Of a stretch of 64,000 nt of DNA, positions 11,016-30,601 are shown piece by piece. A model generated the notes under the pieces. That model did no database searches and was not told the DNA's origin. It was given only the letters and a program-made list of their open reading frames with translations. Position 1 is the stretch's first letter. Each line of letters begins with the position of its first letter. The stretch covers positions 5,031 to 69,030 of the forward strand of contig JAZSQZ010000044.1 in assembly GCA_045538175.1 (NCBI GenBank), in the 5' to 3' direction. The translations under genes were made by a program, and so were the position numbers. The stretch comes from Clostridia bacterium (GTDB taxonomy: Bacteria; Bacillota; Clostridia; Christensenellales; UBA1242).

Positions 11016-11042
11016 TTTTCTTGTTTTAAAAGGAAGAATTTT

Positions 11043-11912: not shown

Positions 11913-11916
11913 AAAT

Positions 11917-11948: not shown

Positions 11949-12825
11949 AATTTAGAATTTTGTTTAGGTTGTCTTTAACTTTTAAAATATCTTCTTGCAT
12001 AGTTGAAGCGCCTGCTGTTATGCCGATTGTTTTTGCAAAAGATAATTCTTCTTTGTTTATATCAAAAACTTCATTAGGGTCTTCAATCTTGTATGTTTTT
12101 GTGTAGTTTGATATGTTTAAAAACAACTCTTTTGTGTTGCTTGAGTTTTTGCCCCCTATTACAAACATAATGTCACATTTTTTTGCTAACACTACGCTTG
12201 CATCGTTTATGTTTTTTTGTGCATTACAAATTGTGTTTTTAAATTCAAAAACCTTATTTTCTTTTTCAAGTTTGTTTTTTATTTTTTCGATAAACAAACT
12301 TGCCTTGTCTTTTGAAAATGTTGTTTGCACTGCAAGAAAATATTTATCAAAACCAAGGTCAATATTTTCGATTTCGCTTTCGTCTTCAATCAAAATTGGG
12401 TTTTCGCACCACCCAGATGTGCCCCTAACTTCAGGGTGTATAGGTTTAGCGTCAAAACCGTGTTTTCCGATTAGAATAATCTTAAAACCTTCGCTTTGTT
12501 TTTTCTCGACAAGTTTGTTTATTGCCAAAACGTTTGGGCAAGTGCAATCAAGATATTTTATGTTGTTGTCTTCAAAATATTTATAAGTGTCCTTTGGTTC
12601 TCCGTGGGCACGAATAATAACAAAGTCGTCTTTTGTTATATCTTCTAAGTTTTCTTTTGTTAAAGCGCCATTTTCTTCTAGGTGTTTTTTTACTGTTTTA
12701 TTGTGTAAAATTTCTTTAAACAAAACGACGTTTTTTTCTTTTTTTATTGTGTTAAAAGTTTCTGTTATTGCTCTGTTTGAACCATAACACAATCCGCATA
12801 CAGGGGATATTTCAATGTTTACCAT
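11947..12825 (-). CDS. ispH: 4-hydroxy-3-methylbut-2-enyl diphosphate reductase (IspH/LytB)
   Basis: CGLCYGSNRAI ... IIRAHGEP ... DCTCPNV ... ICNAQ ... VIGGKNSSNT ... AGASTM. Start moved to the MVNIEISP ATG at 12823-12825, which has RBS AGGAG. The longer track ORF overlaps the divergent promoter. Confidence 0.9.
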   Translation of the reverse strand: MVNIEISPVCGLCYGSNRAITETFNTIKKEKNVVLFKEILHNKTVKKHLEENGALTKENLEDITKDDFVIIRAHGEPKDTYKYFEDNNIKYLDCTCPNVLAINKLVEKKQSEGFKIILIGKHGFDAKPIHPEVRGTSGWCENPILIEDESEIENIDLGFDKYFLAVQTTFSKDKASLFIEKIKNKLEKENKVFEFKNTICNAQKNINDASVVLAKKCDIMFVIGGKNSSNTKELFLNISNYTKTYKIEDPNEVFDINKEELSFAKTIGITAGASTMQEDILKVKDNLNKILN

Positions 12826-12876
12826 AATTACTCCTACAATCATTATACAAAAAATTTTCAAATCATAAAACAATAA

Positions 12877-12905
12877 TTGACAAAATTTTACCCCTTTTTT
12901 ATAAT
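12877..12905 (+). promoter_or_regulatory. Perfect consensus promoter TTGACA-17-TATAAT; -10 ends 6 nt before the ATG at 12912
   Basis: TTGACA at 12877-12882 and TATAAT at 12900-12905. No Shine-Dalgarno sequence between the -10 box and the ATG. Confidence 0.7.
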
Positions 12906-12911
12906 GTCCGT

Positions 12912-13556
12912 ATGGATACAATTTATATATTATCGCAAGTGTTTGTTGTGCTTGCGTATGCTTTTAATTTTTCAACATATCTGTTTAGAAACAGAACATT
13001 GATTGTTATATGCAATCTTATATCTTCTTGCCTTTCAATTGTTTCACTTTTCTTTTTGTCAGCCTGGACAGGTCTTGGAAATGTCGTCATCGGGGTATTA
13101 AGAAACGTTGCATTTATGATAAGAGATAAGGCCTGTGGTAAGGCAGACTACATCACAAAAACCGATTGGTGTATTTATGCAGGCATCGAAGTTGCAACAA
13201 TAACTGTTGGAATTTTAACCTATGCCGGAATTCCAAGTATTATTGCAATGTTTAGTATGTCGGCAAACTCACTTGCAATAACTCAAAAAAATCCTTTCCT
13301 ATATAAAATTGTAAATATCCCTGCAAGTCTTACATATGTTGTGTATAATTTCTTAATCACATCATATTTTGGTGCAATTTGTGAGACAGTTATATTTATA
13401 ACAATCATTGTAGGTATCATAAGAGACAGCATATATTATAAGAAACAAAACGTAAGTCCGTTTGACTTAAAAGCAATAAATAAACTAAAAAAACAACAAG
13501 AAACAATAGAAAATATATCCCCAAAATTAGAAGAAAATGTGGATAATTCCCTTTAA
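12912..13556 (+). CDS. Small polytopic membrane protein (possibly YgjV-like)
   Basis: 214 aa with about 6 hydrophobic helices and a hydrophilic C-terminal tail. The family assignment is only a guess. Confidence 0.55.
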   Translation: MDTIYILSQVFVVLAYAFNFSTYLFRNRTLIVICNLISSCLSIVSLFFLSAWTGLGNVVIGVLRNVAFMIRDKACGKADYITKTDWCIYAGIEVATITVGILTYAGIPSIIAMFSMSANSLAITQKNPFLYKIVNIPASLTYVVYNFLITSYFGAICETVIFITIIVGIIRDSIYYKKQNVSPFDLKAINKLKKQQETIENISPKLEENVDNSL

Positions 13557-13622
13557 AATACTGAAAAGTAAGGAAAATCACAACAAATTTTAAAAAAACT
13601 TCAACTTTTTTTAAAAAAGGGG

Positions 13623-13651
13623 TTGACAGATACTAGATATGGTGGTATTCT
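13623..13651 (+). promoter_or_regulatory. Promoter TTGACA-17-(TGg)TATTCT
   Basis: TTGACA at 13623-13628, 17-nt spacer, TATTCT at 13646-13651 preceded by TGG. Confidence 0.6.
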
Positions 13652-13657
13652 TTCTTT

Positions 13658-13807
13658 CGTTGGAGACACGACTTTGAAAACTAAATTAAGCAAAAATCTA
13701 CTATTTATTATTATGGAAACACTCAGCATATAGAAACTATATGTAGATTTTTTGTGCAATCAAAAAGTTTAGAACATCTGCATATGGTTATGCGGGTGTT
13801 TTTTTTA
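13658..13807 (+). ncRNA. Candidate structured 5' leader or small RNA: boxA-like element plus two terminator-like hairpins
   Basis: ACTTTGAAAACTAAATTAAG lies at about 13670-13689. Hairpin 1 is AAAATCTAC (13693-13701) / GTAGATTTT (13743-13751) plus Ts. Hairpin 2 is ACATCTGCATA (13774-13784) / TATGCGGGTGT (13789-13799), 11 bp including G-U pairs, followed by T8. Confidence 0.35.
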
Positions 13808-13875
13808 TTGTTATATCCGTATTTAGCAGACAATTGAAGTTTTAAAAGTGTTTTTGATAAAAGGAGAAATTAGAG

Positions 13876-15792
13876 ATGCAAAAGAACACATTAACTGAAT
13901 TAACACAAAAGGGAAAAGAGTTATTCTCAAAATTGGCAAAGTCCTATGCTTATAATGGTATAGATTTGCTTATGACCGACTTAGTACCACAAAGGGGTGG
14001 TATTTTAAGCGAAGCTGTTGACGAAGGTGCAACAGCATATATCGCTGGTGGAAAAAACGGACAACAATTCTTCAAGAATATCCCACAATTCTCACCAGAC
14101 TTTGATACATTCACAAGAAGAACAAACGACACCGTTGGCGAAATTGTAAGTTGTTTGCCACAAGATTTGGTTAGCGATAAAATCGGTTTGTTTTTGTATG
14201 TTCCTATGGGCGACCGTATGTGGAGTAAGGCTGTTGAAAGTCACACAGGCGCAAAAGTTATCGCAACAAACGAACAAAACTTTAGAAGTTACTTCGAAGA
14301 AAAAACAAACTTAAGCGATATCTTAAGGGCTGCTGGTCTTGAAAAACACATTATTCCTTCAGAAGTTATAAGACACGACAGATCTTTAACAAGTGAAGAA
14401 GCACAAGCATTGTACGAACAATATGCTGATGCCGATGGCAAAATTGTTGTTCAATACTGTGGCGAAGGCTGTACAGAAAAGGGTGGTGGATACAGTACAA
14501 GAGTTATCACAAGTTATGAAGAATTTGAAGGCGTTTGTGCAGAACCTAGAGATAGTTATATGAAAGTTGCAAAATTCATCACAGGTTACAACTCAAACTT
14601 GTCAATTTGCGCAGGAAACTTAGTTCCTGCAACAGGAATGTTGGGTGCTGTTAAAAACAACTTAACCGAAAGAGAAAGCCGTTTCAGTGGCGCAACAATC
14701 TATAGTTTGTTGCATCGTGCAAGGGGTATGGGAATAAACGAAAACAATATTATCGTAAATGTCCAACCAAGCACATTAAAGGTTGTTGGTGCTCCACAAC
14801 TTACATCAATCGAAACAAACGGTGTTGGCAATCAACTTAACTATAATTTCGAACCACAAATTTCAGAAGCAATCTACAATTTAGGCAACAAACTTGGTAC
14901 ACTTATGGCTATGTGTGGTAAAGTTGGCCTTTGTGGTGCTGACTTAATCATCACAAAAGATGGCGAAGTTTATGTTAACGAAATCAACGACAGACAACAA
15001 GGTCCAACCGAAAGTGCTGGTTTAAACAATGAAGCACACGGACTTCCTGCATTACATAGAACTTCATTCTTCCTTAACTTTGGCAACCTTCACAATGCAG
15101 AAATGCAATCATATTTAAGCGAAGTGGGTTCTCGCTCTCGTGAAATCTATGACGAATCATTGCGTATCCCAAGTCCTTTCTATATCAAGTTTATAAGCAA
15201 ATACAGTGGTGTTGCAAAACAAGATGTAAGAGAAGGAAATTACGAATTAGGTCAAGACTTGTTTGGCAGATGGAATTGGAACTTAAGCGAACCTGTCGAA
15301 GGTTTAGACGGTGCATTGCCTGTTGTTGACTTAAGCACAGGAAGCACAGTTGTAAATATCAACACAGTAAGTATGAACCAAGGCGACTTCTTCCCAAAAG
15401 AAACTCAATTGTTAAGAATCAATGGTGTTTCAATGCCAGGCTCTGCACCATTTAGCATAAGCAAAGATGGAAAATCAGTATTGTCAAAAGATTGGGAAGC
15501 ACCTATCGAAGCTTTGTATGAAACTGTATTAGACAGAACTCAAACACAAGCACCTATCGAAAATATGTTGGGTGAAATGGTTGACCTTCCATCAATCGGC
15601 GACACTGTTGTAGAAGAAGAGTCTGTTGAAGAAACTCCTGTAGATACTCAAGTTGACGGTCAAATGGGTATTGTTGGTATGCCAGCAGAAAACAGAGCAT
15701 ACATCAACACAATCAGTGATATGATGGTAAGAAATTCTGTTTCAGCAGATGTAAAAGTTGATACTCAAGATGGTGGACAAGGCACCAACTAA
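13876..15792 (+). CDS. ATP-grasp fold ligase-like protein with uncharacterised N- and C-terminal regions
   Basis: 638 aa, RBS AAGGAGAAA. The central part fits the ATP-grasp pattern: GKIVVQYCGEGCTEKGGGYSTRVI ... YMKVAKFITGYNSNLSI ... GLCGADLIITKDGEVYVNEINDRQQGP (E-x-N Mg site). Acidic C-terminal tail. Confidence 0.6.
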   Translation: MQKNTLTELTQKGKELFSKLAKSYAYNGIDLLMTDLVPQRGGILSEAVDEGATAYIAGGKNGQQFFKNIPQFSPDFDTFTRRTNDTVGEIVSCLPQDLVSDKIGLFLYVPMGDRMWSKAVESHTGAKVIATNEQNFRSYFEEKTNLSDILRAAGLEKHIIPSEVIRHDRSLTSEEAQALYEQYADADGKIVVQYCGEGCTEKGGGYSTRVITSYEEFEGVCAEPRDSYMKVAKFITGYNSNLSICAGNLVPATGMLGAVKNNLTERESRFSGATIYSLLHRARGMGINENNIIVNVQPSTLKVVGAPQLTSIETNGVGNQLNYNFEPQISEAIYNLGNKLGTLMAMCGKVGLCGADLIITKDGEVYVNEINDRQQGPTESAGLNNEAHGLPALHRTSFFLNFGNLHNAEMQSYLSEVGSRSREIYDESLRIPSPFYIKFISKYSGVAKQDVREGNYELGQDLFGRWNWNLSEPVEGLDGALPVVDLSTGSTVVNINTVSMNQGDFFPKETQLLRINGVSMPGSAPFSISKDGKSVLSKDWEAPIEALYETVLDRTQTQAPIENMLGEMVDLPSIGDTVVEEESVEETPVDTQVDGQMGIVGMPAENRAYINTISDMMVRNSVSADVKVDTQDGGQGTN

Positions 15793-15846
15793 TATTATAT
15801 AATTGCTTTTGTTAGTAACTAAAATTTAAAAAATTAGGAGTTAAAT

Positions 15847-16791
15847 ATGAAAGAGTTTAAGAAAGATATCGTAGTTGGTACAGACGTTGTAGGTCATCCA
15901 ATTTACATCACAAAACACACAATCGATAGCGAAAAACCAGGCAAAACTGTATATATCCAAGGTGGTATCCACGGTGGCGAAATCACTCTTCATATGATAA
16001 GGGATATTTACGATTACCTTAAAAAGAATATAAAAGCAGGAAAGGTCTTCTTTGTGCCTTTTGCAAACCCATTTGGCTGGGGTCAAAAATCTTATACCTA
16101 TACCGTTGGTAAGTTCAACAACAAAACAGGCGAAGATTTTAACCGTACATTTGGAAGCAATAGCGAAGGCAACACAAGTGTACAAATTGCAAAAGCAATC
16201 TTAAAAGAATGTGAAGAAGAAAAAATTGATTTTGCTGTTGACCTTCATACAGCACACACAAGTTTTCCACATACAATTTCTTTTAGCGAAGTTGATATGA
16301 AATTTATTAAACTTGCAAACATCGAATACAACCGTCTTTGCTACAACAGTGAAGAATACAAAACAACCCTTAACTATCAACTTACAAAAAGGGGAATCAA
16401 CAATTTCACAATCGAATGTGGCAGTCACGATAGTATCGACAAAGTTTATCAAAAACAAGTTGTCGAAGGCGTACTTAATGTTATTGCAAACCTTGGTATT
16501 TGTGATTTTACACCAACTTTGAAAAGAACAAATCAAGTTTCATTTTCAAAGGCTGTAAGTTACTTTGCTGAAATCGGTGGTATCGTAGAGTTTAACTTTG
16601 ACCTTGGCGAAAGATTCAAAAAAGGTGATGTGTTATACACAATTCACCCAGCAGATTTAGGAAAAGAATCATACAAAAAAGTTGCAGAATTTGATGGTGT
16701 TGTTTTTAGATTTGCAAAAACACATATCTATAATTCTTTTGACGAAGTTATGAGAGTGTTTAAAGACGAACACTTAACCCCTATAAAATAA
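15847..16791 (+). CDS. Succinylglutamate desuccinylase/aspartoacylase (AstE/AspA, M14-like zinc hydrolase) family protein
   Basis: GKTVYIQGGIHGGEITLH (HxxE zinc site), VDLHTAH (second His), and a C-terminal GGIVEFNFDLGERFKKGDVLYTI barrel-like segment. Starts 54 nt after the ATP-grasp gene. Confidence 0.7.
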   Translation: MKEFKKDIVVGTDVVGHPIYITKHTIDSEKPGKTVYIQGGIHGGEITLHMIRDIYDYLKKNIKAGKVFFVPFANPFGWGQKSYTYTVGKFNNKTGEDFNRTFGSNSEGNTSVQIAKAILKECEEEKIDFAVDLHTAHTSFPHTISFSEVDMKFIKLANIEYNRLCYNSEEYKTTLNYQLTKRGINNFTIECGSHDSIDKVYQKQVVEGVLNVIANLGICDFTPTLKRTNQVSFSKAVSYFAEIGGIVEFNFDLGERFKKGDVLYTIHPADLGKESYKKVAEFDGVVFRFAKTHIYNSFDEVMRVFKDEHLTPIK

Positions 16792-16813
16792 ATAAAAACC
16801 TTTTATCAAAAAC

Positions 16814-16847
16814 AAAAAAGATAAGCAGATTCGCTTATCTTTTTTTT
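16814..16847. terminator. Bidirectional intrinsic terminator
   Basis: AAAAAAGATAAGC-AGATTC-GCTTATCTTTTTTTT. Confidence 0.8.
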
Positions 16848-16854
16848 GTTATAT

Positions 16855-19017
16855 TTAGTTTGATACAACTCTTCTATTTAAGTTAGGAGTTATTTCTAAA
16901 GGATTTCCTTGTAGGTCAACAACTTCAACATTTGCCCAATCACTAGCATCGCCTTCGTAGTTGATTATCACATTATGTGCTACATTTCTATTGATAACAA
17001 TTTTTTCTGTTTTATCTTTTGCAACATTTAATGTTGGATATAAGGGTTGAGTGAATGTACTGTTAAGGTCTATAACAATTTCTTTTGTCCTTAAAAATGT
17101 TGCAGAAAATGCTGAGCCGTAATTTGCATATATATCTTCTTCTATCGTTACTTTTTCATTTTCTCCAAAAACAACAATATCTGGTACAGTTGCGTTTGAT
17201 AAAGAAATGTTTTTTACTTTGCCGATATGTAGTGAATTTGTCCCACCCAAAAGAGTAAGGGTTTCGACAGTTTCTGGATTATAAATTTCTAAAGTAGTTA
17301 CAAAACCTGCATATAGGGTTATATTTTTATGTGTGGTTTCTAAATGTACTTTATCGCATCTAAGGTAAAGGTCAAGGTCTTCATTTTCACAACTTGTGCT
17401 ATCATTTTTATAAACGATGCTTGAAACTCTATCGTATGAATAAATTTCTCTTAAGTCTACAAAAGTACCATCTATAAACATAGGGATTACAAGTTCGCCA
17501 TTTTTATTTCCACCAAAGAATGATAGCCAATCGTTACTTGATGGATTGCTAAGTTTTACAACTTTTCCTGCATCTCTTGTATAATATCCACCTGCAAAAG
17601 CGCCTGCAGCATTATAAGAGCTAAAAGCATCAAAAGCAAGGAAGAAATAACAACCAAGGGACGCAATACAAAGCACAAAAGGTATAACCCTATGGAAGTT
17701 AATTCTGTTAACACCATATTTTTTTCTTATTTTTGCACTTATTATTGTAAAAACAATTAGGGCAACAATCAAAATTGGGAATATTGCAAATTCTGGATAA
17801 GTTACAAATCTTGCTTTTGTTATAAGAGAAGTAAGAACCATCGCAAGTGATGACAATATTGCCAAAATTTCAAAGATACAAAGCGTAATAAAACTCTTTT
17901 TGTTTTCCTTGAGTTTTGCCATATTTGCTTTGTATGCCTGTTTTTTCTCTTTTTTGTTTTCGAACTTTTGTCGATAAGATTCTTTTCTTCTTGCAAGATT
18001 TTCGTTAAAGGCTTGTTCTCTTCTAAGTTTTCTTCTTTGATAGATATCAAGTTCTTCTTCAGGCTCGTTTGGTCTAAATGTAGGTGCAGGTTCTTCTTTT
18101 TGACTTCTAGGTTTAATGTATTTTGAAACACCATCTGCAACAGTTATTTCATATCCAAGTTTTGAAGCGTCAACACCTTGGGCATATTTATTGTTGACAG
18201 TTGGCATATCGTTTGGTGACATATCTTTAAATACAGGGATAAAACTCCTTGCACTCAATTCGTCATCAGTTCTTATTCTGTCGATAAACCTTGTCCATTC
18301 ATTTTTAACCCAAACAGAGTTTATATATTCCTTCTTTGTTCCAACAAGAATAAAAATTTCTGAAGTGTTGATTGCCTTAAATATAATTGGTTCATAGTCG
18401 CTTCCAAGTCTAGATTCAAGTGTCTTTTCTGCAAGGAAAACTTTAAAACCATACTTTGTAAGTTGGTCATAAATGTTTCTTGCAATAATACTATCTTCAG
18501 TTCTATCTCCATTAGGGTCGGTTGCCTTGTAGGAAATAAAGACATCAAAATCTTCTTCTTTTTCAAGTTGTTTTGAAATTGCTTGTTGCAACTCTTCAAT
18601 CTTTTTAACTTTGTTTTTTAAAGAATCTTTTTCTTCATCATCACAAAGGGAGAGAAGTGTTTTGTAAGTTTCGTCTTCGTAAATAGAGTTGAAGTGTGTC
18701 CTATGGCAAGTTGGCACAAGGGTGTTTGTCCTTGGGTCTTTTACATACTCAATTCCGTATTTTGCAAGTAGCAAACCTTCGTAGGCCGATTTTTCTCTTT
18801 TATCCTTTGTAATTGCAAATTCATAAGTTTTGATTGCTGCATCAAAGTCATAGTTGGCTCGTTGCAAATATGCTGTATTTAAAAGAGCTATAATTTCTTC
18901 ATTTGGCCTTGGCATAATTACGGTCGAACCACAGTGTGTGCAAACGCCAAGACTTTTGTCTTCAAGTTGTTGTATCTCTGAAGCCCCACAACAACTACAA
19001 GTTATATTGTTACTCAT
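16855..19017 (-). CDS. Zinc-ribbon / TIR-domain / 3-TM / LRR-like ectodomain protein (paralog 1)
   Basis: Start set at MSNNITCSCCG (ATG 19015-19017, RBS GGAGAAAAC) by analogy with paralog 2. Zinc ribbon CSCCG..CTHCG. TIR block DFDVFISYKATD ... SVWVKNEWTRF. Three hydrophobic helices. C-terminal repeat region ending YEGDASDWANVE. Confidence 0.75.
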   Translation of the reverse strand: MSNNITCSCCGASEIQQLEDKSLGVCTHCGSTVIMPRPNEEIIALLNTAYLQRANYDFDAAIKTYEFAITKDKREKSAYEGLLLAKYGIEYVKDPRTNTLVPTCHRTHFNSIYEDETYKTLLSLCDDEEKDSLKNKVKKIEELQQAISKQLEKEEDFDVFISYKATDPNGDRTEDSIIARNIYDQLTKYGFKVFLAEKTLESRLGSDYEPIIFKAINTSEIFILVGTKKEYINSVWVKNEWTRFIDRIRTDDELSARSFIPVFKDMSPNDMPTVNNKYAQGVDASKLGYEITVADGVSKYIKPRSQKEEPAPTFRPNEPEEELDIYQRRKLRREQAFNENLARRKESYRQKFENKKEKKQAYKANMAKLKENKKSFITLCIFEILAILSSLAMVLTSLITKARFVTYPEFAIFPILIVALIVFTIISAKIRKKYGVNRINFHRVIPFVLCIASLGCYFFLAFDAFSSYNAAGAFAGGYYTRDAGKVVKLSNPSSNDWLSFFGGNKNGELVIPMFIDGTFVDLREIYSYDRVSSIVYKNDSTSCENEDLDLYLRCDKVHLETTHKNITLYAGFVTTLEIYNPETVETLTLLGGTNSLHIGKVKNISLSNATVPDIVVFGENEKVTIEEDIYANYGSAFSATFLRTKEIVIDLNSTFTQPLYPTLNVAKDKTEKIVINRNVAHNVIINYEGDASDWANVEVVDLQGNPLEITPNLNRRVVSN

Positions 19018-19216
19018 AAAGTTTTCTCCGTTGTCATTGTAGCAAATTAAATCAATTTTGAAAACAAAAAAGAGAATATTGTTTGTTTTAGGGGGCAAAG
19101 TGTACAAAAAAACTCGAATTTTATCGAAAATTTTCAAATTAGGTCTTGAAATATTTAGTATTTGGGATTAAACTATATACACTTAACCAATTCTTTTTTT
19201 ATTTTAGGGGGTTGAT

Positions 19217-20473
19217 ATGGTAGGAGTTATTATGGCAGGCGGACAAGGCGTTAGACTTCAATCCGTAACAGGGCCATTACCAAAAGCAATGGTAAACATT
19301 AGAAACACAACCGTTGAAAATTTTGGTAAAGCTAAAGATACAATTCTAGAACATCAAATGAGAGTGTTATCCGAAAACGGCGTAACAGATTTTATTCTGG
19401 TCGTGGGTAATAAAAAGGAATATATCCAAGCAGCATTCACAAACGAAATTATTAACCGAAATATCCCAGGAAGAAACATTACAATTAGATACTTTGTAGA
19501 AGACCGTCCACTTGGTACAGCAGGGGCTTTTTGTTCGCGAGAACTTCAAGACATGATACAAGAGGACGATTTTTTATTTACTTATGCAGATGTTTTGTAT
19601 GATGTAAATATTCGCAAAATGTTCGAATTACATAAAAGGGAAAAGGCAGATGCAACTGTCCTTATCTCTCCTTGCTCTGAACCTGACGATAGACCAATTT
19701 GCGTTTGCGAAAAAGGTTCTAACATTATTTCAGGAATTATTCCAAAGCAAGGAAAAACTGATGGCCCAAGGGGTGGCGCATTCCCAAACACTCCTAAAAA
19801 TGGAATTATGATTTTAAACAAGTCTGCACTTAAACTTCTTCCAAGTCAACCAACATACTTAGATATGGAAGAAAGTTTATTAACAAGACTTATATATAGT
19901 GGTGCACACAAAGTTTGTGCTTGGAACACACCATGTTACATTAAAGACATCGGTACAGTTGATAGATATTATGAAGGTGTTTCAGAACTTGCAAGAAATA
20001 TTCCTATGCTTAGAAACCCAGACAAAAATCCACAAAGTTGTGTTATATTTAAAGCAAAAGACTTAATCACTGTTTCACCTGAAGGAATCGCAGTTTTAGA
20101 TACAGAACTTGCAGACGCAATAAAAACACTCAACGATAACGGTATTATCACAGCAGTTTATAGAGACAACCCACAAATCGCTGTTCACCCACAAGAAGAA
20201 TGGCTTATCGATACAATGCTTGTAAGAGATGGCGACGGGGCATTCTTAAACACAAAATTTGGCGAAGACCAAGTTGAAGAGTTTAACGCACAAATGGCAG
20301 AATGGAACGTTGCTCCAGAAAATATTATCCAAGTTGATATGATGCCAAAAGGTTGCTTGCTTTCACATGTGGACGGCACAAGACAAATGTTTGGCGATGC
20401 AGAAACAGCAATCAAAGATTTGTTAGGTACATATTCTATCCAAGACTTCGGTGGACAAGGCGACGACGAATAA
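19217..20473 (+). CDS. Sugar-phosphate nucleotidyltransferase with a C-terminal extension (possibly a degenerate HAD/GmhB-like domain)
   Basis: N-terminus MAGGQGVRLQSVTGPLPKAMV has the NTP_transferase G-x-G-x-R-L signature. The C-terminal ~140 aa have HAD-like spacing (CVIFKAKD ... LNDNGIITAVYRDN) but lack the DxD nucleophile motif. The C-terminal call is low confidence. Confidence 0.65.
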   Translation: MVGVIMAGGQGVRLQSVTGPLPKAMVNIRNTTVENFGKAKDTILEHQMRVLSENGVTDFILVVGNKKEYIQAAFTNEIINRNIPGRNITIRYFVEDRPLGTAGAFCSRELQDMIQEDDFLFTYADVLYDVNIRKMFELHKREKADATVLISPCSEPDDRPICVCEKGSNIISGIIPKQGKTDGPRGGAFPNTPKNGIMILNKSALKLLPSQPTYLDMEESLLTRLIYSGAHKVCAWNTPCYIKDIGTVDRYYEGVSELARNIPMLRNPDKNPQSCVIFKAKDLITVSPEGIAVLDTELADAIKTLNDNGIITAVYRDNPQIAVHPQEEWLIDTMLVRDGDGAFLNTKFGEDQVEEFNAQMAEWNVAPENIIQVDMMPKGCLLSHVDGTRQMFGDAETAIKDLLGTYSIQDFGGQGDDE

Positions 20474-20482
20474 TAAAAAATC

Positions 20483-20519
20483 AAAGCAAGGTAAAATTAC
20501 TTTGCTTTATTTTTTTTTG
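20483..20519 (+). terminator. Weak intrinsic terminator after the nucleotidyltransferase gene
   Basis: AAAGCAA ... TTGCTTT stem with a 12-nt loop followed by T9. Confidence 0.4.
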
Positions 20520-20550
20520 ATTGTATAATTATATAAAAGGAAAATGATTT

Positions 20551-21447
20551 ATGATTGATTTACATATCCACACACAATATTCTGATGGTCTTCCAACCGT
20601 AACAGAAATTTTAAAACTTGCAGAAGAAAGAAAACTTGACTATATCTCAATAACCGACCACGACGCAATCGGGGCATATGAAGAATTGAACAAAATGAAC
20701 ATTAAAGAACACTTTAGTGGAAAAATTATCTACGGGTGCGAGTTGAAGTTTATTTATAATAAAACCCAAATGGAACTTGTAGCACTTGGTTATGATTGGG
20801 AAAAATTAAATAAATCTTATTGGGTGCACGAAGAAAGTTATCACGCAAACAAAAGGGCACTCCTTAAAAATGCTATTGAAAAGGGCAAAAAAGCTGGTTT
20901 TGTTTATGACAATCTTGAATACAAGTCAAATGAAAAGTCAGAAAAAACTTTCTATTTCGAACTTTTAAAACACGAAGAAAATTTGCCTATTTTAGAAAAA
21001 TATAAGGTTAAACACGGTGGCGACTTCTTTAGAAATATTGTTGCAAACCCAGAAAGCCCACTTTATTTTGACCCAACTGATTACACTTTGGGTTTTGAAG
21101 AAGCTGTTGACCTTATTCACGAATGTGGTGGCGTTGCACTTCTTGCACACCCTTTTGGTGTTTATAAAATCGATAATCCAAAAGAAATCATAAACGAATT
21201 GCTTGCAAAAAACAAACTTGATGGTTTGGAATGTTATCATAGCAGTATGACCGAAGAGCACACAGAATATCTATTAAACTTGTGCAAAGAAAAAGGACTT
21301 TTAACTTCAGGTGGAAGTGATTATCACAATTACCCTGGTCAACACTTTGCAAAAGCACATGACGGAAGGACTGATATCCCAACAGAAATTATTTTGCCTA
21401 TCTTAAAAAGAATAGGGGATAGGGGTATCGTTGAAGGTAGTAAGTAA
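20551..21447 (+). CDS. PHP-domain metal-dependent phosphoesterase (TrpH/YciV-like)
   Basis: MIDLHIHTQYSDG ... ISITDHD ... LAHP ... GGSDYH: the PHP His/Asp motif series. Confidence 0.8.
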   Translation: MIDLHIHTQYSDGLPTVTEILKLAEERKLDYISITDHDAIGAYEELNKMNIKEHFSGKIIYGCELKFIYNKTQMELVALGYDWEKLNKSYWVHEESYHANKRALLKNAIEKGKKAGFVYDNLEYKSNEKSEKTFYFELLKHEENLPILEKYKVKHGGDFFRNIVANPESPLYFDPTDYTLGFEEAVDLIHECGGVALLAHPFGVYKIDNPKEIINELLAKNKLDGLECYHSSMTEEHTEYLLNLCKEKGLLTSGGSDYHNYPGQHFAKAHDGRTDIPTEIILPILKRIGDRGIVEGSK

Positions 21448-21894
21448 ATGAAGATTTGTATGTTAAGCGACAGTCACGGAAGAAAAAAATCAGTTTTTAC
21501 ACTTTTGTATGAAACTGATTATGATTATATCTTTTACCTTGGTGACGGACTTAAAGATATGGAAGATTTCGATGCTAAAAATGTTTTAAAGGTTTGTGGA
21601 AATTGTGACATATTTGAAGTTGCCCCTATAACACAACTTATCGAAATCGAAGGTGTTAAGTTTTTGTTAACACACGGACACGAGTTTAAGGCAAAGTACT
21701 CAGAATATGGCCTTGTAAAAGTGGCACACGAAAGGGGTGCAAATGTTGTTTGTTTTGGGCACACACATAAGCAAAGATATGACGAAGTTGATGGCATAAC
21801 TTTACTCAATGCAGGTGCTTTTAAAAATGGCGATTATGCTGAAATTATAGTTAAAAATGGCAAAATCGAAAAAGTAGATTTTAAAGAAATCTAA
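21448..21894 (+). CDS. YfcE/MJ0936-family metallophosphoesterase
   Basis: LSDSHG ... GDG ... THGH ... GHTH motifs. Its ATG directly abuts the PHP stop codon (TAAATG). Confidence 0.85.
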   Translation: MKICMLSDSHGRKKSVFTLLYETDYDYIFYLGDGLKDMEDFDAKNVLKVCGNCDIFEVAPITQLIEIEGVKFLLTHGHEFKAKYSEYGLVKVAHERGANVVCFGHTHKQRYDEVDGITLLNAGAFKNGDYAEIIVKNGKIEKVDFKEI

Positions 21895-21905
21895 AAGGAA
21901 AAACT

Positions 21906-24113
21906 ATGGAACAAAAGATAATAATGTGTAACAACTGTGGTGGAGAAGAGATTACACATATTGAAGGCAAAAATTTAGGTATATGTAAGCACTGTGGTGC
22001 AACTATTATTATGCCAAGACCAAATGAAGAAATCATAGGTCTACTTAACACTGCCTATCTTCAAAGGGCAACTTATGATTTTGATGCTGCAATAAAAACT
22101 TACGAATATGTCCTTGATAAAGACTCTCAAGAGAAATCTGCATACGAAGGTTTGTTACTTGCAAAATATGGTATTGAATATATAAAAGACCCAAGGTCAT
22201 CAAAACTAATACCTACTTGCCACAGAACACACTTTAATTCCATTTATGAAGACGATGCCTATTTATCTCTTGTTGCATTATGTGACGAAGAAGAAAAAGA
22301 AATTTTAAAAGACAAATTTGCAAAAATCGATAAACTTCAAAAAGCAATTGCAAAACAGTTAGAAAAAGAAGAAGATTTTGATGTATTTATCTCATACAAA
22401 GCAACTGATGAAAACGGCGAGAAAACTGAAGACAGTGTTATCGCAAGAAACATATACGATAAACTTACCGAAAAGAATTATAAAGTGTTCTTAGCAGAAA
22501 AAACTTTAGAAGATAGGTTAGGTAGTGATTACGAACCTATCATTTTTAAAGCAATACAAACTTCTAAAATATTTGTCCTTGTCGGCACAAAAAAAGAATA
22601 TGTAAATTCTGTTTGGGTAAAAAACGAGTGGACAAGATTTGTTGATAGAATCAAAAACGAAAACAATGGCGAAATTTCTTCACAATCTTTTATACCTGTC
22701 TTTAAAGATATGTCGCCATACGATATGCCAAAAGTCAACAACAAATTTGTCCAAGGCGTTGATGCTTCAAAAATAGGTTATGCAATCACAGTTACCGATG
22801 GCATCACAAAACTTTTAAAACCAAAAGACACAAAAGATGTTATAAAAACTTTCAATGACTTTGAAAATATTGTTGAATTTAAAAGAGTTCAAAAACAAGC
22901 AAAAAAAGAACACCATAAAAAACAAATTTCAAAACTTAAAGAAAACAAATTAAAATATGCTTTATTTTTAACTATGGAAATTTTATGTTTTGTTTTGCCT
23001 CTTGTCATGATAGGAATTTCTTTTACTCAAAAATTTCCATTTTTGCAATATTGTAATTTTTGGATATTCCTAACACTTGGTTTGTTGTGGATAGTATGTT
23101 TTGTATTTGTTTTGGTGTATAAAGGTAAAACAAAAATTTGTCAATCGGTTATAAGAATAGTTTTATCATCAATTTGTATGAGTATGGCACTTTTGTTTAT
23201 GATTTTAACTAGCGTGACTTATACTATTTATGTGGAAATGTGGGGTGGGATAAATCCTGGCAATGTGTGTGGTGTTTATTCAGGTGGATATTATAATATC
23301 GAAAATAACAAAATTACAAGGTTATATAATGTAAAACCAAACAGCGGTAATGATTTTATTGTACCAGAGTATATTAATGGTATTAAAGTAGAATTGCAAA
23401 GTATAAATGGCAATACAAAATATGAAAGTATTTATATAGACACAAAAAACATCAATAAAACAGAAAATTTTTATTTTAATGTCAATGTTGAAAAATTAGA
23501 AATTTCTGGTGAAAAAATTAACAATTTTTATTTTGATAATTATGGTTCTATTGATGAATTGGAAATTTCTTTTCCAGCAGATAGTTTCGAGTTGCACTCT
23601 ACCAAGGTTATAAATAATGTGTCAATAAAAAACAAAATACAACAATTAATTATTATAGAAGGCATTGAATCAATTGATAATTTAATATCACACCTTTCTA
23701 TAGATTCAAGTATGGATAGTTTTAGTATTACAGATTGGGAAGGAGGTACATCAATAGAAAAAGTTTCTATTAATGCTTTAGTTAATAATTTAAGACTGGA
23801 TTTACGCATTGATAAATTTGAAGTAAATACGACTATTAATGATTTAAAAATAGAGAAATTAGGTGGTTGGTATTGGGAAGAAGTAAACACTAATAATAAT
23901 GTTGAAAGATTGACAATTGAGGGTGCTTCCGGAATTAAAAAGATAAAAATTGGAGAGAATATTGACTACATAAAAATTACTGCATATAATGTTAGTGGAA
24001 CTGGAATAGTTGTTTGTTTTGAAGGGGATGAAACTGAATGGAATGCTGTTGAAAAGGATATTCCAGATTACGTTCTCCCAGAAATTACAGTTTTATTTAA
24101 TCAATCAATATAA
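21906..24113 (+). CDS. Zinc-ribbon / TIR-domain / 3-TM / LRR-like ectodomain protein (paralog 2)
   Basis: Zinc ribbon CNNCG..CKHCG. TIR block aa ~157-300 (DFDVFISYKATD ... SVWVKNEWTRF; Glu241 = nt 22626-22628). TM helices at about aa 351-373, 383-405 and 416-443. Repeat-rich C-terminus ending FEGDETEWNAVE. Starts 12 nt after the yfcE-like stop. Confidence 0.8.
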   Translation: MEQKIIMCNNCGGEEITHIEGKNLGICKHCGATIIMPRPNEEIIGLLNTAYLQRATYDFDAAIKTYEYVLDKDSQEKSAYEGLLLAKYGIEYIKDPRSSKLIPTCHRTHFNSIYEDDAYLSLVALCDEEEKEILKDKFAKIDKLQKAIAKQLEKEEDFDVFISYKATDENGEKTEDSVIARNIYDKLTEKNYKVFLAEKTLEDRLGSDYEPIIFKAIQTSKIFVLVGTKKEYVNSVWVKNEWTRFVDRIKNENNGEISSQSFIPVFKDMSPYDMPKVNNKFVQGVDASKIGYAITVTDGITKLLKPKDTKDVIKTFNDFENIVEFKRVQKQAKKEHHKKQISKLKENKLKYALFLTMEILCFVLPLVMIGISFTQKFPFLQYCNFWIFLTLGLLWIVCFVFVLVYKGKTKICQSVIRIVLSSICMSMALLFMILTSVTYTIYVEMWGGINPGNVCGVYSGGYYNIENNKITRLYNVKPNSGNDFIVPEYINGIKVELQSINGNTKYESIYIDTKNINKTENFYFNVNVEKLEISGEKINNFYFDNYGSIDELEISFPADSFELHSTKVINNVSIKNKIQQLIIIEGIESIDNLISHLSIDSSMDSFSITDWEGGTSIEKVSINALVNNLRLDLRIDKFEVNTTINDLKIEKLGGWYWEEVNTNNNVERLTIEGASGIKKIKIGENIDYIKITAYNVSGTGIVVCFEGDETEWNAVEKDIPDYVLPEITVLFNQSI

Positions 24114-25099: not shown

Positions 25100-25252
25100 A
25101 ATTTCTCTCCTTAAAGTATTGTATCACACATAGTAAAAGTAGTCAAAGTTTATAAATTGTTGCTTTGCACAAATAAATATTTCCTAAAACTCTTTTATTT
25201 TACAATACAAAAAATTTTTAGTGTGATATAATTTTTCTATTAAGGGGATAAA

Positions 25253-28200
25253 ATGGAAACAGAAGAACTTTACGAGAAACTCTTTAACCTAAGAGAAAAG
25301 TTAAAAAGAAAATTTCAATCAAACGGCAGAATGCCAAACATCTGTAGTGACGAATCTTTAAGAGAAATCGCAACAAGAGCACCACGCCAAAAAGATGACT
25401 TGCTTGGTATCGGTGGAATAGGAGATACCTTTGTCGAAAAATATGGCGACTTTTTTATGGTCTATCTTAATCAATATCACAGAAGCCACGTAAAACTTAC
25501 AGAACTTAAAAAAGAAGTCAAAAACACACTTAAAAACTTAGAAAACAGACTTGTAAACATAAGCAAGAAAAATCGTCTTTTATATATGGGCAAAATTCAC
25601 AGCAAATATGCTTACGATATGTTTTGTGATAATGACGAATTTAATGATTCCGTTGCAGGGCTTTTAATGGGCAAACTCTCAAAACTCAACATAACTGCTG
25701 CAACTGACGACATTGAAGAAAAGGAAAGAAGATTTAAAAAAGTCTTACCTTTAATTAGAGAAGTCAACAAAGAGTTTAGAGAAAGTGGACAGTATGATTT
25801 ATATATTGGCTATCCTTTTGTTATGGGTAAAACTAAGGGCGAAGACTTTAATGTTAGGGCACCACTTATGTTGTTTCCTGTAACATATGAGCGAAAAGAC
25901 CAAGATGTTATCTTAAGATTAGACAAAACAAAAGACATTATGTACAACAGCAACCTAATCTTGATGCAAAACAAATTCTTAAACAAAAATGGGGAACTTC
26001 CAAATCATATCTTAGAAGAAGTTAACACACAAACAATCATCGAAGATATGAAAAATTTTTACGAAACAAACGATATTACGCTTAACATAACAGATAGTTC
26101 CTACATAAATCAAAAGTTAAACGATATCAAAGCAGACGAGTTTCCAAAGTTTAACTCCGGCGAGTTTCAAGTTTTGTCTAGTGCAGTTTTAGGTAAGTTC
26201 TCACTTTACTCAACAGCACTTCAAAAAGACTTTAAAAAGATTATCGAAGGCGACGAAATCAACACAACTTTAAACGAACTTATTTCAAATATGGATTCAA
26301 TCAATGTTTACGACGAAGATTTAACCGAAGACGAAACTGTTGAAGAACCATATATCACTTTCCAAGAAAACAATATCAGCTACATTAACGACCTTAACTC
26401 TTCTCAAGAGCAAGCCATTATGGCAATTGATAAAAACGATAAACTTGTTATTCAAGGCCCTCCGGGAACAGGTAAATCACAAACAATCACCTCACTAATT
26501 GCTGATGCTGTAAACAAGGGTAAAAATGTTTTGATGGTTTCTCAAAAGAAAGCAGCGCTAGATGTTATTTATTCTCGCTTGGGTCACCTTTCAAAATTTG
26601 CAATTATGTTAAACGATGTTAAAGATAAAGTTGGTTTTTATAATCAACTTAACAACTTGTTTAACTGTGATAAAATTTTTAAGTTTGAAAGATTAGCGTA
26701 CGAAAAGTTGTCAACAAACATTGACACAAATATTAAAAACTTAGAAACGATTGCAAACAAGTTATACACATTTAAAACTAATGGTGTTGGCATATACCAA
26801 ATTTATCAAGATAGTTCAAACAACACCTTTAAAACATCACAACCTTTTGAAAATGTTTTTTATCAAAACACAAATCAAAAATTGTTAAGTGTAGGCTATA
26901 GTGAACTTAAAGAAATTAAAGAAAAGTTTGAAAATATTGATATTTTGCAAGCAGGCATTGATTTTGCAATTGCAAATGAAAATTATGGTTGGCTTGAAGA
27001 TGTCAAAAAAGATTTATCACTTTTTGACTTTAACAATATTCAAGCAGAGTTTGAAAAGTTTGCAACATCTCAATTAGAGTTTTTAAAACTAGGCTTCTTT
27101 AAGCGTCTATCAAAAAAAGGCGAACAAAAAAGAGCTTTAAAACAAATTTATAAAACATATTTTAACAAGCGCAGAAGTTTTAAAGAGATATTTAAAAATC
27201 CACAAAAACTTGCTGACGGCATAAAACTTTATGATGATTATCAAAACACAAAACTTGTAAGTGCTTCATTTAGCGAAAATGAAAAACTTTATGTTTCAAC
27301 TCTTGCAAAAATTCATATGCAAGATAGCGCAGTTGCAAAAAATGATTACTTATTCGACTTTATTACAAGTTGTATCACAAAGCAATTCGAAAATCAAAAC
27401 CGTGATGTTTTTGTAAATATTTCTAACTTTAATTATATTAGAGATTCAATTATCGCTTGCATAAATGAGAAAAAAGAATACACAAAAGAGAAACTTAAAA
27501 GCGTTGTTGTTTCTACATACCGAAAGGAACTTTTAAGGTCAAAGAGATATTTCGAAATTTGCAGGCAACTTGAAAGCACAAGAAAGTGGGATATTACAAA
27601 GTTCTTAAAGAAATTCGACTTTGAATTGTTCAAAGGTGTAAAAGTTTGGCTTATGACACCAGAGTCTGTTTCAGAAGTTTTACCACTTGAAAAAGGCCTT
27701 TTTGATTTGCTTATATTCGATGAAGCATCACAAATTTATATCGAAAGGGGTATCCCTGCTATTGCAAGAGCAAAGAAAGTTGTTATTGCAGGCGACCACA
27801 AACAACTTCGTCCTTCAAGTTTAGGCTTTGGAAGATTAGAATACGAAGACGACGAGATGAGTGAAGAAGAACTCGAAACAAACGCAGCCCTAGAAGAAGA
27901 AAGTTTGCTTGACCTTGCAAGATTTAAGTATCCATCAGTTATGCTTAATTATCACTATAGGTCAAAGTACGAAGAACTTATCAATTTCTCAAACTATGCC
28001 TTCTATAAAGGACGCCTTAATGTTTCGCCAAACATTGAAAAACCTGCTACACCACCAATCGAATTTATCAAAATTGATAATGGTATGTGGGTAAACAGAT
28101 GCAACAAGGTTGAAGCTGTAAAAGTTGTAGAAACAATCAAAAACTTCTTAAAAACTAGAAAGAAAAACGAAACATTAGGTGTTATTACATTTAACACAAA

Positions 28201-28981
28201 CCAAAGAGATGCAATCTTAGATGAGATTGATAGCGAATGCCTAAAAGATAAAACATTTGCAAGTCTTTATAAAAAAGAGTTCGACAGAAAAGAAGATGGC
28301 GAAGACAAAGGCTTGTTTGTAAAAAATATCGAAAACGTTCAAGGGGACGAGAGAGATTGTATTATCTTCTCAATAGGATACGCCAAAAACGAACAAGGCA
28401 AAATTGTTAGAAACTTTGGTTGGTTAAATCAACAAGGTGGCGAAAATCGTCTTAATGTTGCAATTTCAAGAGCAAAGAGAAAAATCTTTGTTATCACATC
28501 ACTTGCTCCACACGAACTTGTTACAGACGACCTTAAAAACGAAGGTCCAAAGTTATTTAGAAAATATCTAGAATATTGTTATGCTGTTTCAACAGACAAT
28601 CCTTACGAAGTTGATAGAATTTTATCTTCAATCGGCACAAAGCAAGAAGAAATATTAGAAGATATTGTTTCAACTGATTTCGAAAACGATGTTTATAATG
28701 CTTTAACCCAAAATGGTCTTGTGGTTGATAGAGAAGTCGGTGCTGGGGGATATAAAATCGACTTTGCAATAAAAAACCAAGAAGGGAAGTACTTGCTTGG
28801 AATTGAGTGCGACGGTAAATTATACGGAAGCAATATGAAAACAAGGGAAAGAGATATTTATAGACAACAATACCTAGAAATTAGGGGTTGGAATATCTAT
28901 AGATTGTGGACAACAAATTGGTTTAAAAACAAAGACCAAGAGATTCAAAACATTTTAAACAAATTGCAAAACTTAAAATAA
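25253..28981 (+). CDS. HRDC / DUF4011-like / SF1 (Upf1-DNA2-like) helicase / Vsr-DUF559-like endonuclease fusion protein
   Basis: 1242 aa. N-terminal HRDC-like ICSDESLREIATRAPRQKDDLLGIGGIGDTFVEKYG. DUF4011-like NRLLYMGK ... YIGYPFVMGK ... RAPLMLFPV. Walker A GPPGTGKSQT (aa 402-411) and Walker B IFDEASQI. Further helicase motifs GDHKQLRP, YRSKYEELINFSN, VQGDERDCIIFS and LNVAISRAKRKIFV. C-terminal YKIDFAI ... LGIECDG ... RGWNIYRLW (PD-(D/E)xK, Vsr-like). Confidence 0.8.
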   Translation: METEELYEKLFNLREKLKRKFQSNGRMPNICSDESLREIATRAPRQKDDLLGIGGIGDTFVEKYGDFFMVYLNQYHRSHVKLTELKKEVKNTLKNLENRLVNISKKNRLLYMGKIHSKYAYDMFCDNDEFNDSVAGLLMGKLSKLNITAATDDIEEKERRFKKVLPLIREVNKEFRESGQYDLYIGYPFVMGKTKGEDFNVRAPLMLFPVTYERKDQDVILRLDKTKDIMYNSNLILMQNKFLNKNGELPNHILEEVNTQTIIEDMKNFYETNDITLNITDSSYINQKLNDIKADEFPKFNSGEFQVLSSAVLGKFSLYSTALQKDFKKIIEGDEINTTLNELISNMDSINVYDEDLTEDETVEEPYITFQENNISYINDLNSSQEQAIMAIDKNDKLVIQGPPGTGKSQTITSLIADAVNKGKNVLMVSQKKAALDVIYSRLGHLSKFAIMLNDVKDKVGFYNQLNNLFNCDKIFKFERLAYEKLSTNIDTNIKNLETIANKLYTFKTNGVGIYQIYQDSSNNTFKTSQPFENVFYQNTNQKLLSVGYSELKEIKEKFENIDILQAGIDFAIANENYGWLEDVKKDLSLFDFNNIQAEFEKFATSQLEFLKLGFFKRLSKKGEQKRALKQIYKTYFNKRRSFKEIFKNPQKLADGIKLYDDYQNTKLVSASFSENEKLYVSTLAKIHMQDSAVAKNDYLFDFITSCITKQFENQNRDVFVNISNFNYIRDSIIACINEKKEYTKEKLKSVVVSTYRKELLRSKRYFEICRQLESTRKWDITKFLKKFDFELFKGVKVWLMTPESVSEVLPLEKGLFDLLIFDEASQIYIERGIPAIARAKKVVIAGDHKQLRPSSLGFGRLEYEDDEMSEEELETNAALEEESLLDLARFKYPSVMLNYHYRSKYEELINFSNYAFYKGRLNVSPNIEKPATPPIEFIKIDNGMWVNRCNKVEAVKVVETIKNFLKTRKKNETLGVITFNTNQRDAILDEIDSECLKDKTFASLYKKEFDRKEDGEDKGLFVKNIENVQGDERDCIIFSIGYAKNEQGKIVRNFGWLNQQGGENRLNVAISRAKRKIFVITSLAPHELVTDDLKNEGPKLFRKYLEYCYAVSTDNPYEVDRILSSIGTKQEEILEDIVSTDFENDVYNALTQNGLVVDREVGAGGYKIDFAIKNQEGKYLLGIECDGKLYGSNMKTRERDIYRQQYLEIRGWNIYRLWTTNWFKNKDQEIQNILNKLQNLK

Positions 28982-28983
28982 TA

Positions 28984-29011
28984 AAAAGAGCACACATTTG
29001 TGCTCTTTTTT
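28984..29011 (+). terminator. Intrinsic terminator after the helicase-nuclease gene
   Basis: AGAGCACA-CATT-TGTGCTCT followed by T6. Confidence 0.85.
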
Positions 29012-30524: not shown

Positions 30525-30601
30525 TGGTGCACCCATAGGGACTCGAACCCCAAACCTTCACGTCCGTAGCGTGACGCTCTATCCAATTGCGCTATGAGTG
30601 C
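30525..30601 (-). tRNA. tRNA-Arg (anticodon ACG), CCA encoded
   Basis: Reverse complement is GCACTCATAGCGCAATTGGATAGAGCGTCACGCTACGGACGTGAAGGTTTGGGGTTCGAGTCCCTATGGGTGCACCA. 7-bp acceptor stem, anticodon loop CTACGGA, T-loop GGTTCGAGTCC. Confidence 0.9.

Follow-up and report, generated by a model that had tools for sequence, protein, structure and literature searches.

What is a stand-alone gene for a large helicase-nuclease doing in the chromosome of a sporulating Firmicute: does it act against foreign DNA, or does it maintain the DNA of its host? The gene is an open reading frame (ORF) of 1242 amino acids (aa) with an ATG start at positions 25253..28981 (plus strand) of a 64,000-nucleotide (nt) stretch from a Clostridia bacterium (contig JAZSQZ010000044.1, positions 5,031 to 69,030), which we call the window. 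A preliminary description, made from the sequence alone, had presented its product as a candidate single-gene defense protein with four elements, namely, an HRDC domain, a DUF4011-like region, a Upf1-type superfamily 1 (SF1) helicase, and a Vsr-like nuclease. We show here that the window protein belongs to the DUF4011/helicase/MTES_1575 superfamily, as a short offshoot with an HRDC domain; the characterized members of this superfamily, Hhe and ProA, are single-gene anti-phage proteins. We found no earlier description of this short HRDC-bearing form and define it here.

An HRDC-bearing helicase-nuclease with conserved active sites

The ORF was present exactly as claimed, all of the quoted motifs lay at the claimed positions, and the reading as four elements was borne out by Pfam matches, which we counted only above the gathering score of each family. 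The HRDC domain (PF00570) scored 42.4 bits (cut-off, 23.8; E = 6.8e-11), and a profile search of the PDB matched it to the HRDC domain of RecQ (1wud, E = 1.8e-7). DUF4011 (PF13195) was recognized at residues 157 to 236 with 29.0 bits (cut-off, 22.2), over the second half of the model only (positions 74 to 155 of 158), and a BLASTP alignment to ProA spans the whole DUF4011 region. The motor matched AAA_11 from residue 381 (71.8 bits) and AAA_12 at residues 892 to 1083 (78.8 bits), each with a cut-off of 27. The first part of its first RecA-like domain (RecA1) matched IGHMBP2, Upf1, and Dna2 sequences in the PDB profile search, and the segment formed by the remainder of RecA1 and by RecA2 contains motifs II (DEASQ), III (GDHKQLRP), IV, V (VQGDERD), and VI (LNVAISRAKR). 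Motifs Q, I, Ia, and II to VI, the two AAA families, and a matching fold together place the motor in the SF1B/Upf1-like class. The C-terminal nuclease fold, as proposed, was backed by a hidden Markov model search (MTES_1575, PF18741; 107.2 bits against 38.2, E = 4.4e-31), with DUF559 also matching at 25.9 bits (cut-off, 20.6). The terminal domains are likewise assigned to the HRDC and MTES_1575/DUF559 classes by scores above gathering, combined with an HRDC fold in the former and conserved acidic residues in the latter.

We then looked at conservation in an alignment of 60 homologs, 45 to 87% identical to the window protein. K408, D823, and E824 were invariant (60/60), and every other quoted helicase motif also holds invariant residues. 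In the nuclease, D1170 was conserved in 57/60 homologs and D1187 in 58/60, while position 1185 was always acidic and R1198 and D1201 were each found in 60/60; D1170, E1185, D1187, and D1201 are, from this alignment, candidate metal ligands. The all-helical insert of RecA1 was the least conserved segment, with a mean pairwise identity of 31% versus 66 to 70% for the motor, and is a possible regulatory element.

Two structure models were made separately, an AlphaFold2 model of residues 43 to 1242 and a model of residues 1 to 385. With the first (mean predicted local distance difference test [pLDDT] of 84.9, predicted template modeling score of 0.77), Foldseek retrieved Aquarius, SETX, Upf1, IGHMBP2, Dna2, and Sen1 at E values of 1e-14 to 1e-10, and also ZNFX1; the PDB sequence profiles concur with these Upf1-like SF1B matches. 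In the second, the first 75 residues superpose on RecQ HRDC domains with a template modeling (TM) score of 0.85 and a root mean square deviation of 2.4 to 2.6 Å. The DUF4011-like region was modeled at pLDDT 80 to 95 as a long helix, a six-stranded beta unit, and an alpha/beta subdomain. Foldseek gave no fold match for it in the PDB at E < 0.001, the N-terminal model returning the HRDC domain only. One idea, taken from the order of the modeled secondary-structure elements alone, is that this region might represent the stalk and 1B barrel of Upf1-like helicases.

Homology to anti-phage proteins and predicted activity

The best PADLOC matches of the window protein were PDC-S37 (E = 3e-166), Hhe (E = 1.7e-94), and then Mokosh helicases. 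Its best NCBIfam match was "anti-phage protein ProA" (NF058533, 570.9 bits), followed by "DUF4011 domain-containing anti-phage protein Hhe" (NF042953, 422.3 bits). By BLASTP, residues 83 to 531 of the window protein correspond to ProA residues 359 to 816 and its residues 728 to 1228 to ProA residues 1234 to 1699, at 24 to 32% identity. The family had been considered functionally uncharacterized, which is wrong: its DUF4011/Upf1-like helicase/MTES_1575 (Vsr) nuclease architecture was described in 2013 with a prediction of modification-independent defense (PMC3710099), Hhe has been used experimentally, and NCBIfam or PADLOC models exist for Hhe, ProA, and PDC-S37.

Since motifs and folds are intact, we predict a DNA helicase-nuclease activity, and sequence and models together give good support to a gene product that would combine an ATP-driven 5'-to-3' SF1B motor with a Vsr-fold DNase. 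The HRDC and DUF4011-like modules would keep the enzyme bound to single-stranded or branched DNA. The motor would consume ATP to translocate in the 5'-to-3' direction, using K408, D823, E824, and conserved arginines in motifs V and VI, and the C-terminal nuclease, with D1170, E1185, D1187, and D1201, would cleave the DNA that the motor feeds to it. If the target is foreign DNA, then, as the gene is accompanied by neither a methyltransferase nor any other partner, discrimination would have to operate through DNA structure (for example, free ends or the replication or recombination intermediates of invading elements) or through activation by DNA-metabolism functions of the invader, as reported for Hhe. 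The role would then be one of constitutive surveillance against foreign DNA, exerted by a copy that is fixed in the chromosome and passed on vertically, not by a mobile island gene.

Distribution of the HRDC type

More than 3240 database proteins matched the window protein at E <= 1e-10. The best 120 of these were all 1214 to 1307 aa long and contained HRDC, AAA_11/AAA_12, and MTES_1575, with DUF4011 recorded for most. When the N-terminal 385 residues were compared by phmmer with 1.84 billion cluster representatives (50% identity), 82 clusters matched at E <= 1e-30, and nearly all of the full-length ones were 1180 to 1290 aa long, with HRDC first. Homolog length is mostly about 1240 aa and is kept in more than 100 clusters. 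A scan of genome contigs with the window protein alone found three loci only, too few for a test of distribution.

The named members come from Clostridia (of the gut) and Bacillota metagenome-assembled genomes (MAGs), one Bacteroidaceae MAG, and Methanomassiliicoccales archaea. The archaeal ones comprise "Candidatus Methanoplasma termitum" (WP_048112878.1, annotated as RecD2), Methanomassiliicoccaceae archaeon DOK (QHK18028.1), and many Methanomethylophilaceae MAGs, and public annotation of the Methanomassiliicoccales orthologs reads "RecD2" or "AAA domain-containing." In a neighbor-joining tree, which carries no support values, the HRDC type was monophyletic with respect to ProA and the archaea formed one clade nested among bacteria. 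The spread over Clostridia, a Bacteroidaceae MAG, and a nested Methanomassiliicoccales clade implies horizontal transfer, and the tree points to a single transfer of the HRDC type into archaea.

Genomic contexts of the homologs

We next evaluated the neighborhoods of the homologs, which fell into about 30 distinct context classes. As these loci were found through the gene that they contain, losses in other lineages would escape notice. The neighbors were mostly housekeeping or metabolic genes, and no neighbor family recurred across clades, so that the helicase-nuclease is a stand-alone gene.

Sixteen Methanomassiliicoccales lineages share one syntenic locus (L061, L064, L067, L070, L096, L099, L105, L111, and L123 are examples, with the helicase at about 10001 to 13730 in most). 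Genes for a class I tRNA synthetase, TctA, a major facilitator superfamily (MFS) transporter, and a thioesterase lie 5' of the helicase, and genes for a diphthamide synthase, RpiA, and eIF2-alpha lie 3' of it. The divergence of the archaeal helicase correlates with that of the synthetase (r = 0.87), eIF2-alpha (r = 0.88), RpiA (r = 0.82), and an ABC-2 permease (r = 0.98). Three archaeal entries (P0186, P0196, and P0203; 1796 to 1836 aa) contain a TctA transporter domain as well as the helicase; since TctA is the gene 5' of the helicase at this locus, the apparent fusion is probably an artifact of merged gene calls.

In three Clostridia lineages, ComF, RecD2, an unnamed gene, and Cmk are held in common, followed by the helicase on the opposite strand. 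The conserved Cmk, RecD2, and ComF flank lies on the left side of the helicase in L003, L020, and L021. On the other side (region of about 13800 to 22000), L003 and L021 have 8 to 9 kb of variable content (helix-turn-helix regulators, Fic, and genes without assignment) that separate the helicase from the S18-SSB-S6 genes, and the right flank in L020 is different and also variable. This variable flank recalls the Pseudomonas aeruginosa defense hotspot cDHS1, which is bordered by a core DUF4011 gene (PMC10250203).

Clear defense neighbors were seen in three contexts, namely, BREX in L013, a type I restriction-modification system with DUF2726 and NYN genes in L023, and the TIR genes of the window. 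Among the bacteria, the sister clade of the archaeal sequences (P0101, P0078, and P0071; L013, L022, and L023) is the one found beside defense or mobile-element genes: BREX in one case, type I restriction-modification with DUF2726, NYN, and resolvase genes in another, and a cluster of UvrD-like, M78 peptidase, DEAD helicase, and DprA genes. This sister lineage may be the mobile one. A strong PADLOC match to "SspH/mad8" (a 762-aa protein in L131) was rejected as a defense gene, as the Pfam summary makes it probably an FtsK/SpoIIIE-family protein.

Defense or genome maintenance

Judged from sequence, a role in defense seems to us evenly balanced between right and wrong. It draws on homology, not on genomic context: the relatedness to Hhe, ProA, and PDC-S37 supports it, as do the intact architecture and catalytic motifs, the stand-alone layout, and the transfer across domains of life. 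Past mobility is also suggested by one bacterial clade with island contexts and by the two fast-evolving TIR proteins near the gene in the window. A number of findings weigh against it. Clear defense neighbors were limited to about 3 of the roughly 30 context classes (a raw count, with no background score), and PADLOC applied to 122 neighbors from 18 further contexts gave no convincing system, only ordinary genes. Searches of 72,556 plasmids, 50,697 phages, and the IMG/VR collection yielded no protein of the HRDC type. The gene has a G+C content of 31 to 33%, equal to that of the window and host-like. In a relative with an 85% identical helicase (L136), the GNAT, dUTPase, helicase, orf100, and orf354 genes are all retained at 85 to 95% identity. 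The rate of divergence is also like that of a housekeeping gene: across the archaeal locus, the helicase has a mean identity of 71.5%, versus 71.6% for the class I tRNA synthetase, and in the Clostridia clade helicase identities of 83, 61, and 60% parallel those of Cmk (81, 55, and 54%). Finally, the window protein scores well below the cut-offs of both anti-phage equivalogs over its full length (1500 bits for ProA and 2000 bits for Hhe), and it does not have the full architecture of ProA, whose first ~358 residues and C-terminal DUF3320 (winged-helix) are missing, with HRDC in their place. The Methanomassiliicoccales and Clostridia clades show vertical descent at a housekeeping-like rate, and by raw count HRDC-type homologs are not enriched beside defense systems or in the mobile-element collections. 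The preliminary description had named conservation at a syntenic housekeeping locus, with no defense-island association, as grounds for refuting a defense role, and this largely applies to the HRDC-type subfamily: synteny is kept in two clades and in the 85% identical relative, and no members turned up among the plasmids, phages, and viral contigs searched; the wider link to single-gene helicase-nuclease immunity is real, and the likeness to Nhi that had been drawn with it is weak.

The relatives that do occur in the plasmid, phage, and IMG/VR collections do not exceed 36% identity and align from about residue 130 or later, past the HRDC domain. Among the closest plasmid relatives is one on Spiroplasma citri plasmid pSciBLHMB-7 (L018, positions 5480 to 9078; 36% identity from residue 155), where two adjacent coding sequences are annotated, one for a DUF4011 protein and one for a hypothetical product, with an NgoFVII-family restriction endonuclease nearby; the two may represent one gene that was split or has a frameshift.

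The same pattern of inheritance is what would be expected of a helicase-nuclease of genome maintenance, acting in repair, recombination, or fork and flap processing like a Dna2 with a RecQ-style HRDC domain, and either descended from or ancestral to Hhe and ProA. We regard this explanation as possible, with an appreciable but less than even probability. Besides the vertical inheritance at syntenic housekeeping loci at a tRNA-synthetase-like rate, the synteny retained in the 85% identical relative, and the absence of members from the mobile-element collections, it is favored by the highly conserved motor and the fixed length of the protein, by Dna2 being among the structural matches, by the loosely recurring neighbors with roles in DNA metabolism (RecD2/Cmk/ComF, SSB, PolA, a UvrD-like helicase with DprA, LigD, and the dUTPase of the window), and by the core status of a DUF4011 gene in P. 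aeruginosa (PMC10250203). However, the nearest characterized relatives are all anti-phage proteins, some members adjoin BREX or restriction-modification systems, and the contexts collected revealed no operon link to a repair pathway; the sampled loci, being selected for presence of the gene, are no proof of universal presence, and in Mycoplasma hominis a chromosomal DUF4011 gene was disrupted by a conjugative element with no apparent harm (PMC12228374). A more specific version is that the HRDC type is a domesticated housekeeping branch of the Hhe/ProA superfamily, engaged in Dna2-like end, flap, or fork processing, that passed once from gut Firmicutes to an ancestor of the host-associated Methanomassiliicoccales and was kept as a core maintenance gene; so detailed a history is somewhat unlikely.

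The structural and sequence matches of the motor raise the further question of whether the enzyme acts on RNA or RNA:DNA hybrids (R-loops, transcription termination, RNA surveillance), like Upf1, Sen1, or IGHMBP2, with the HRDC domain binding RNA. The top matches, SETX, Upf1, Aquarius, IGHMBP2, and Sen1, are indeed RNA or RNA/DNA helicases, and HRDC domains also occur in RNase D and Rrp6 (Foldseek ranks 36 and 44), but the effector is a restriction-endonuclease-type domain of Vsr/DUF559 fold, a DNase family (PMC3710099), the best HRDC match is RecQ, and Hhe and ProA are described as DNA helicase-nucleases. A function on RNA is, on this evidence, improbable. That the gene is an inactive relic of a defense gene is hardly credible: beyond a protein shorter than ProA and Hhe, nothing specific speaks for it, while the frame is intact, the catalytic motifs are invariant or nearly so among the 60 aligned homologs, the length is conserved across clusters, and the structure model is confident.

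Significance

To our knowledge, the mechanism of Hhe and ProA has not been worked out to date. The window protein is a compact relative, with 1242 aa versus 1700 to 1960 aa for Hhe and ProA, that retains the conserved core, adds a well-understood HRDC handle, and has a confident model; being compact, core-only, and confidently modeled, it is a convenient subject for biochemistry and cryo-electron microscopy. Its inheritance pattern raises the question of whether the superfamily is always immune in function or whether some members are genome-maintenance enzymes. PADLOC would probably label such genes as defense candidates, and in the NCBI anti-phage models the window protein scores several hundred bits, below the curated cut-offs, which calls for caution before every member is called anti-phage in automated annotation. 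The Methanomassiliicoccales orthologs are a case of gene transfer in the gut, from bacterium to archaeon, with long-term retention afterward. If the HRDC type were a domesticated branch, an immune helicase-nuclease and a repair enzyme would be two faces of one family across domains of life.

Gene layout and neighborhood in the window

The helicase-nuclease gene had been described as monocistronic, with its own promoter and a strong terminator. A monocistronic layout is plausible, because the 5' neighbor (a dUTPase gene on the minus strand) is divergent, a perfect extended -10 element (TGATATAAT) and a ribosome-binding site precede the start codon, and a hairpin with a predicted RNA folding energy of -14.6 kcal/mol (z = -6.05) follows the stop codon. 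The promoter part of the claim is less firm, as the sequence upstream of the extended -10 holds no good -35 hexamer and a consensus promoter scan called no -35/-10 pair there. The features of the gene are collected in Table 1.

Table 1. Features of the helicase-nuclease gene and its flanks (positions in the window)
Feature	Position	Strand	Basis
Putative extended -10 element, TGATATAAT	25224..25232	+	Sequence inspection; inferred
Ribosome-binding site, AGGGG	25243..25247	+	5 nt 5' of ATG, sequence inspection
Coding sequence, HRDC / DUF4011-like / SF1B helicase / Vsr-fold nuclease	25253..28981	+	ORF call, Pfam
HRDC domain, residues 4-69	25262..25459	+	Pfam PF00570, RecQ HRDC fold match
DUF4011-like region, residues 83-352	25499..26308	+	Pfam DUF4011, BLASTP to ProA
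RecA1, first part: Q motif, Walker A GPPGTGKS, motif Ia	26375..26662	+	AAA_11, invariant columns
K408 codon (Walker A)	26474-26476	+	Invariant column
All-helical RecA1 insert, residues 471-795	26663..27637	+	Model secondary structure, conservation
RecA1 remainder and RecA2, motifs II-VI	27638..28507	+	AAA_11/AAA_12, invariant columns, Foldseek
Motif II, DEASQ	27719-27733	+	Invariant column
MTES_1575/DUF559 Vsr-fold PD-(D/E)xK-type nuclease, residues 1143-1238	28679..28966	+	Pfam PF18741, conservation, ProA alignment
Bidirectional intrinsic terminator, 12-bp stem between A run and T run	28983..29010	.	Sequence scan, RNA folding energy

The window is part of the chromosome of a sporulating Firmicute, with SpoIIE and TilS downstream of the helicase gene. 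On the 5' side of the gene are dUTPase and GNAT genes and then, 1 to 8 kb upstream, genes for two paralogous TIR-domain proteins; on the 3' side are orf100, orf354, a tRNA-Arg, and NUDIX and HIT genes. Neither orf100 nor orf354 had a Pfam or PADLOC match, and they were rejected as conserved partner genes, since they reappear in the 85% identical relative alone, other clades being without them. In that relative, an extra 95-aa ORF, missing from the window and with no Pfam family recorded, lies between the helicase and orf100 (L136, positions 6319 to 6606).

The TIR paralogs (16855-19137, minus strand, 760 aa; 21906-24113, plus strand, 735 aa) are 47% identical overall and bracket nucleotidyltransferase, PHP, and metallophosphoesterase genes. 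Each combines a Cys-pair zinc-ribbon motif at the N terminus with a TIR-containing half that is highly conserved, hydrophobic stretches resembling membrane segments, and a C-terminal part that has diverged; matches to defense models were weak (PDC-S66 and ThsB, about 1e-5). The TIR gene of L136 is only 29% identical to its window counterpart, and the paralogs may constitute a TIR system not described before, at a locus that evolves rapidly. The tRNA-Arg (ACG; 30525-30601, minus strand) lies directly past orf354, with its 3' end toward the helicase block. An island integrated at this tRNA was considered and rejected, as the tRNA 3' end is not repeated in the window and there is no G+C anomaly; no integrase was found among the window neighbors scanned. 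A very long ORF (1792 aa) occupies positions 4164 to 9542 (plus strand).

Comparison with known systems

The window protein has the same helicase and Vsr-family nuclease as the architecture described in 2013, from which it differs in that HEPN, transglutaminase, and winged-helix/DUF3320 modules were not detected in it by Pfam (PMC3710099). With Mokosh it shares a Upf1-like motor (PADLOC, E = 1.3e-38 for MkoA and E = 6.6e-33 for MkoC), whereas the effector domains and N termini of both Mokosh and Nhi are different. No Nhi family was among the PADLOC matches at E <= 1, and Nhi has been placed in the SF1_UvrD group while the Hhe motor was classed as SF1_Upf1 (PMC10925250). Dna2, eukaryotic and archaeal, resembles the window protein in joining an SF1B Upf1-like motor to a PD-(D/E)xK-type nuclease (Foldseek matches 5eaw and 5ean, E about 1e-11), but the Dna2 nuclease is N-terminal and of another family, and there is no sequence homology beyond the motor. 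With RecQ the likeness lies in the HRDC fold. PDC-S37, the best PADLOC match, is a PADLOC "phage defence candidate" with a profile of 1550 positions, of which the best matching stretch spans 919 to 1341 only; we found no publication naming it, and papers on archaeal and rumen defense systems mention neither Hhe nor PDC-S37.

Hhe, which reportedly goes back to Gao et al. in 2020, is likewise a single-gene DUF4011/SF1 Upf1-like helicase/Vsr-type nuclease (PADLOC PDLC02194). The alignment with it is good only over motor and nuclease (residues 798 to 1242 of the window protein to profile positions 1263 to 1684 of 1797), and the long N terminus of Hhe is missing from the window protein, which has HRDC. 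As an experimentally used single-gene helicase-nuclease defense, Hhe has triggers that map to phage DNA-metabolism genes (bioRxiv 10.1101/2024.10.10.617714).

ProA, for which we found no primary literature, shares with the window protein a collinear core of DUF4011, Upf1-like AAA_11/AAA_12 motor, and MTES_1575 nuclease. Its bona fide members are "DUF3320/DUF4011 domain-containing" proteins of 1718 to 1963 aa from Klebsiella, Raoultella, and Acinetobacter plasmids, and their layout runs from about 370 N-terminal residues through a complete DUF4011 and the motor to MTES_1575, with DUF3320 present in some. The Klebsiella/Raoultella (1963-aa) and Acinetobacter (1718-aa) proteins score 2222 and 1782 bits, respectively, on NF058533. 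In contrast, the window protein has a helical insert shorter by about 200 residues and an HRDC domain at its N terminus, and whereas ProA is plasmid-borne, the HRDC type is chromosomal.

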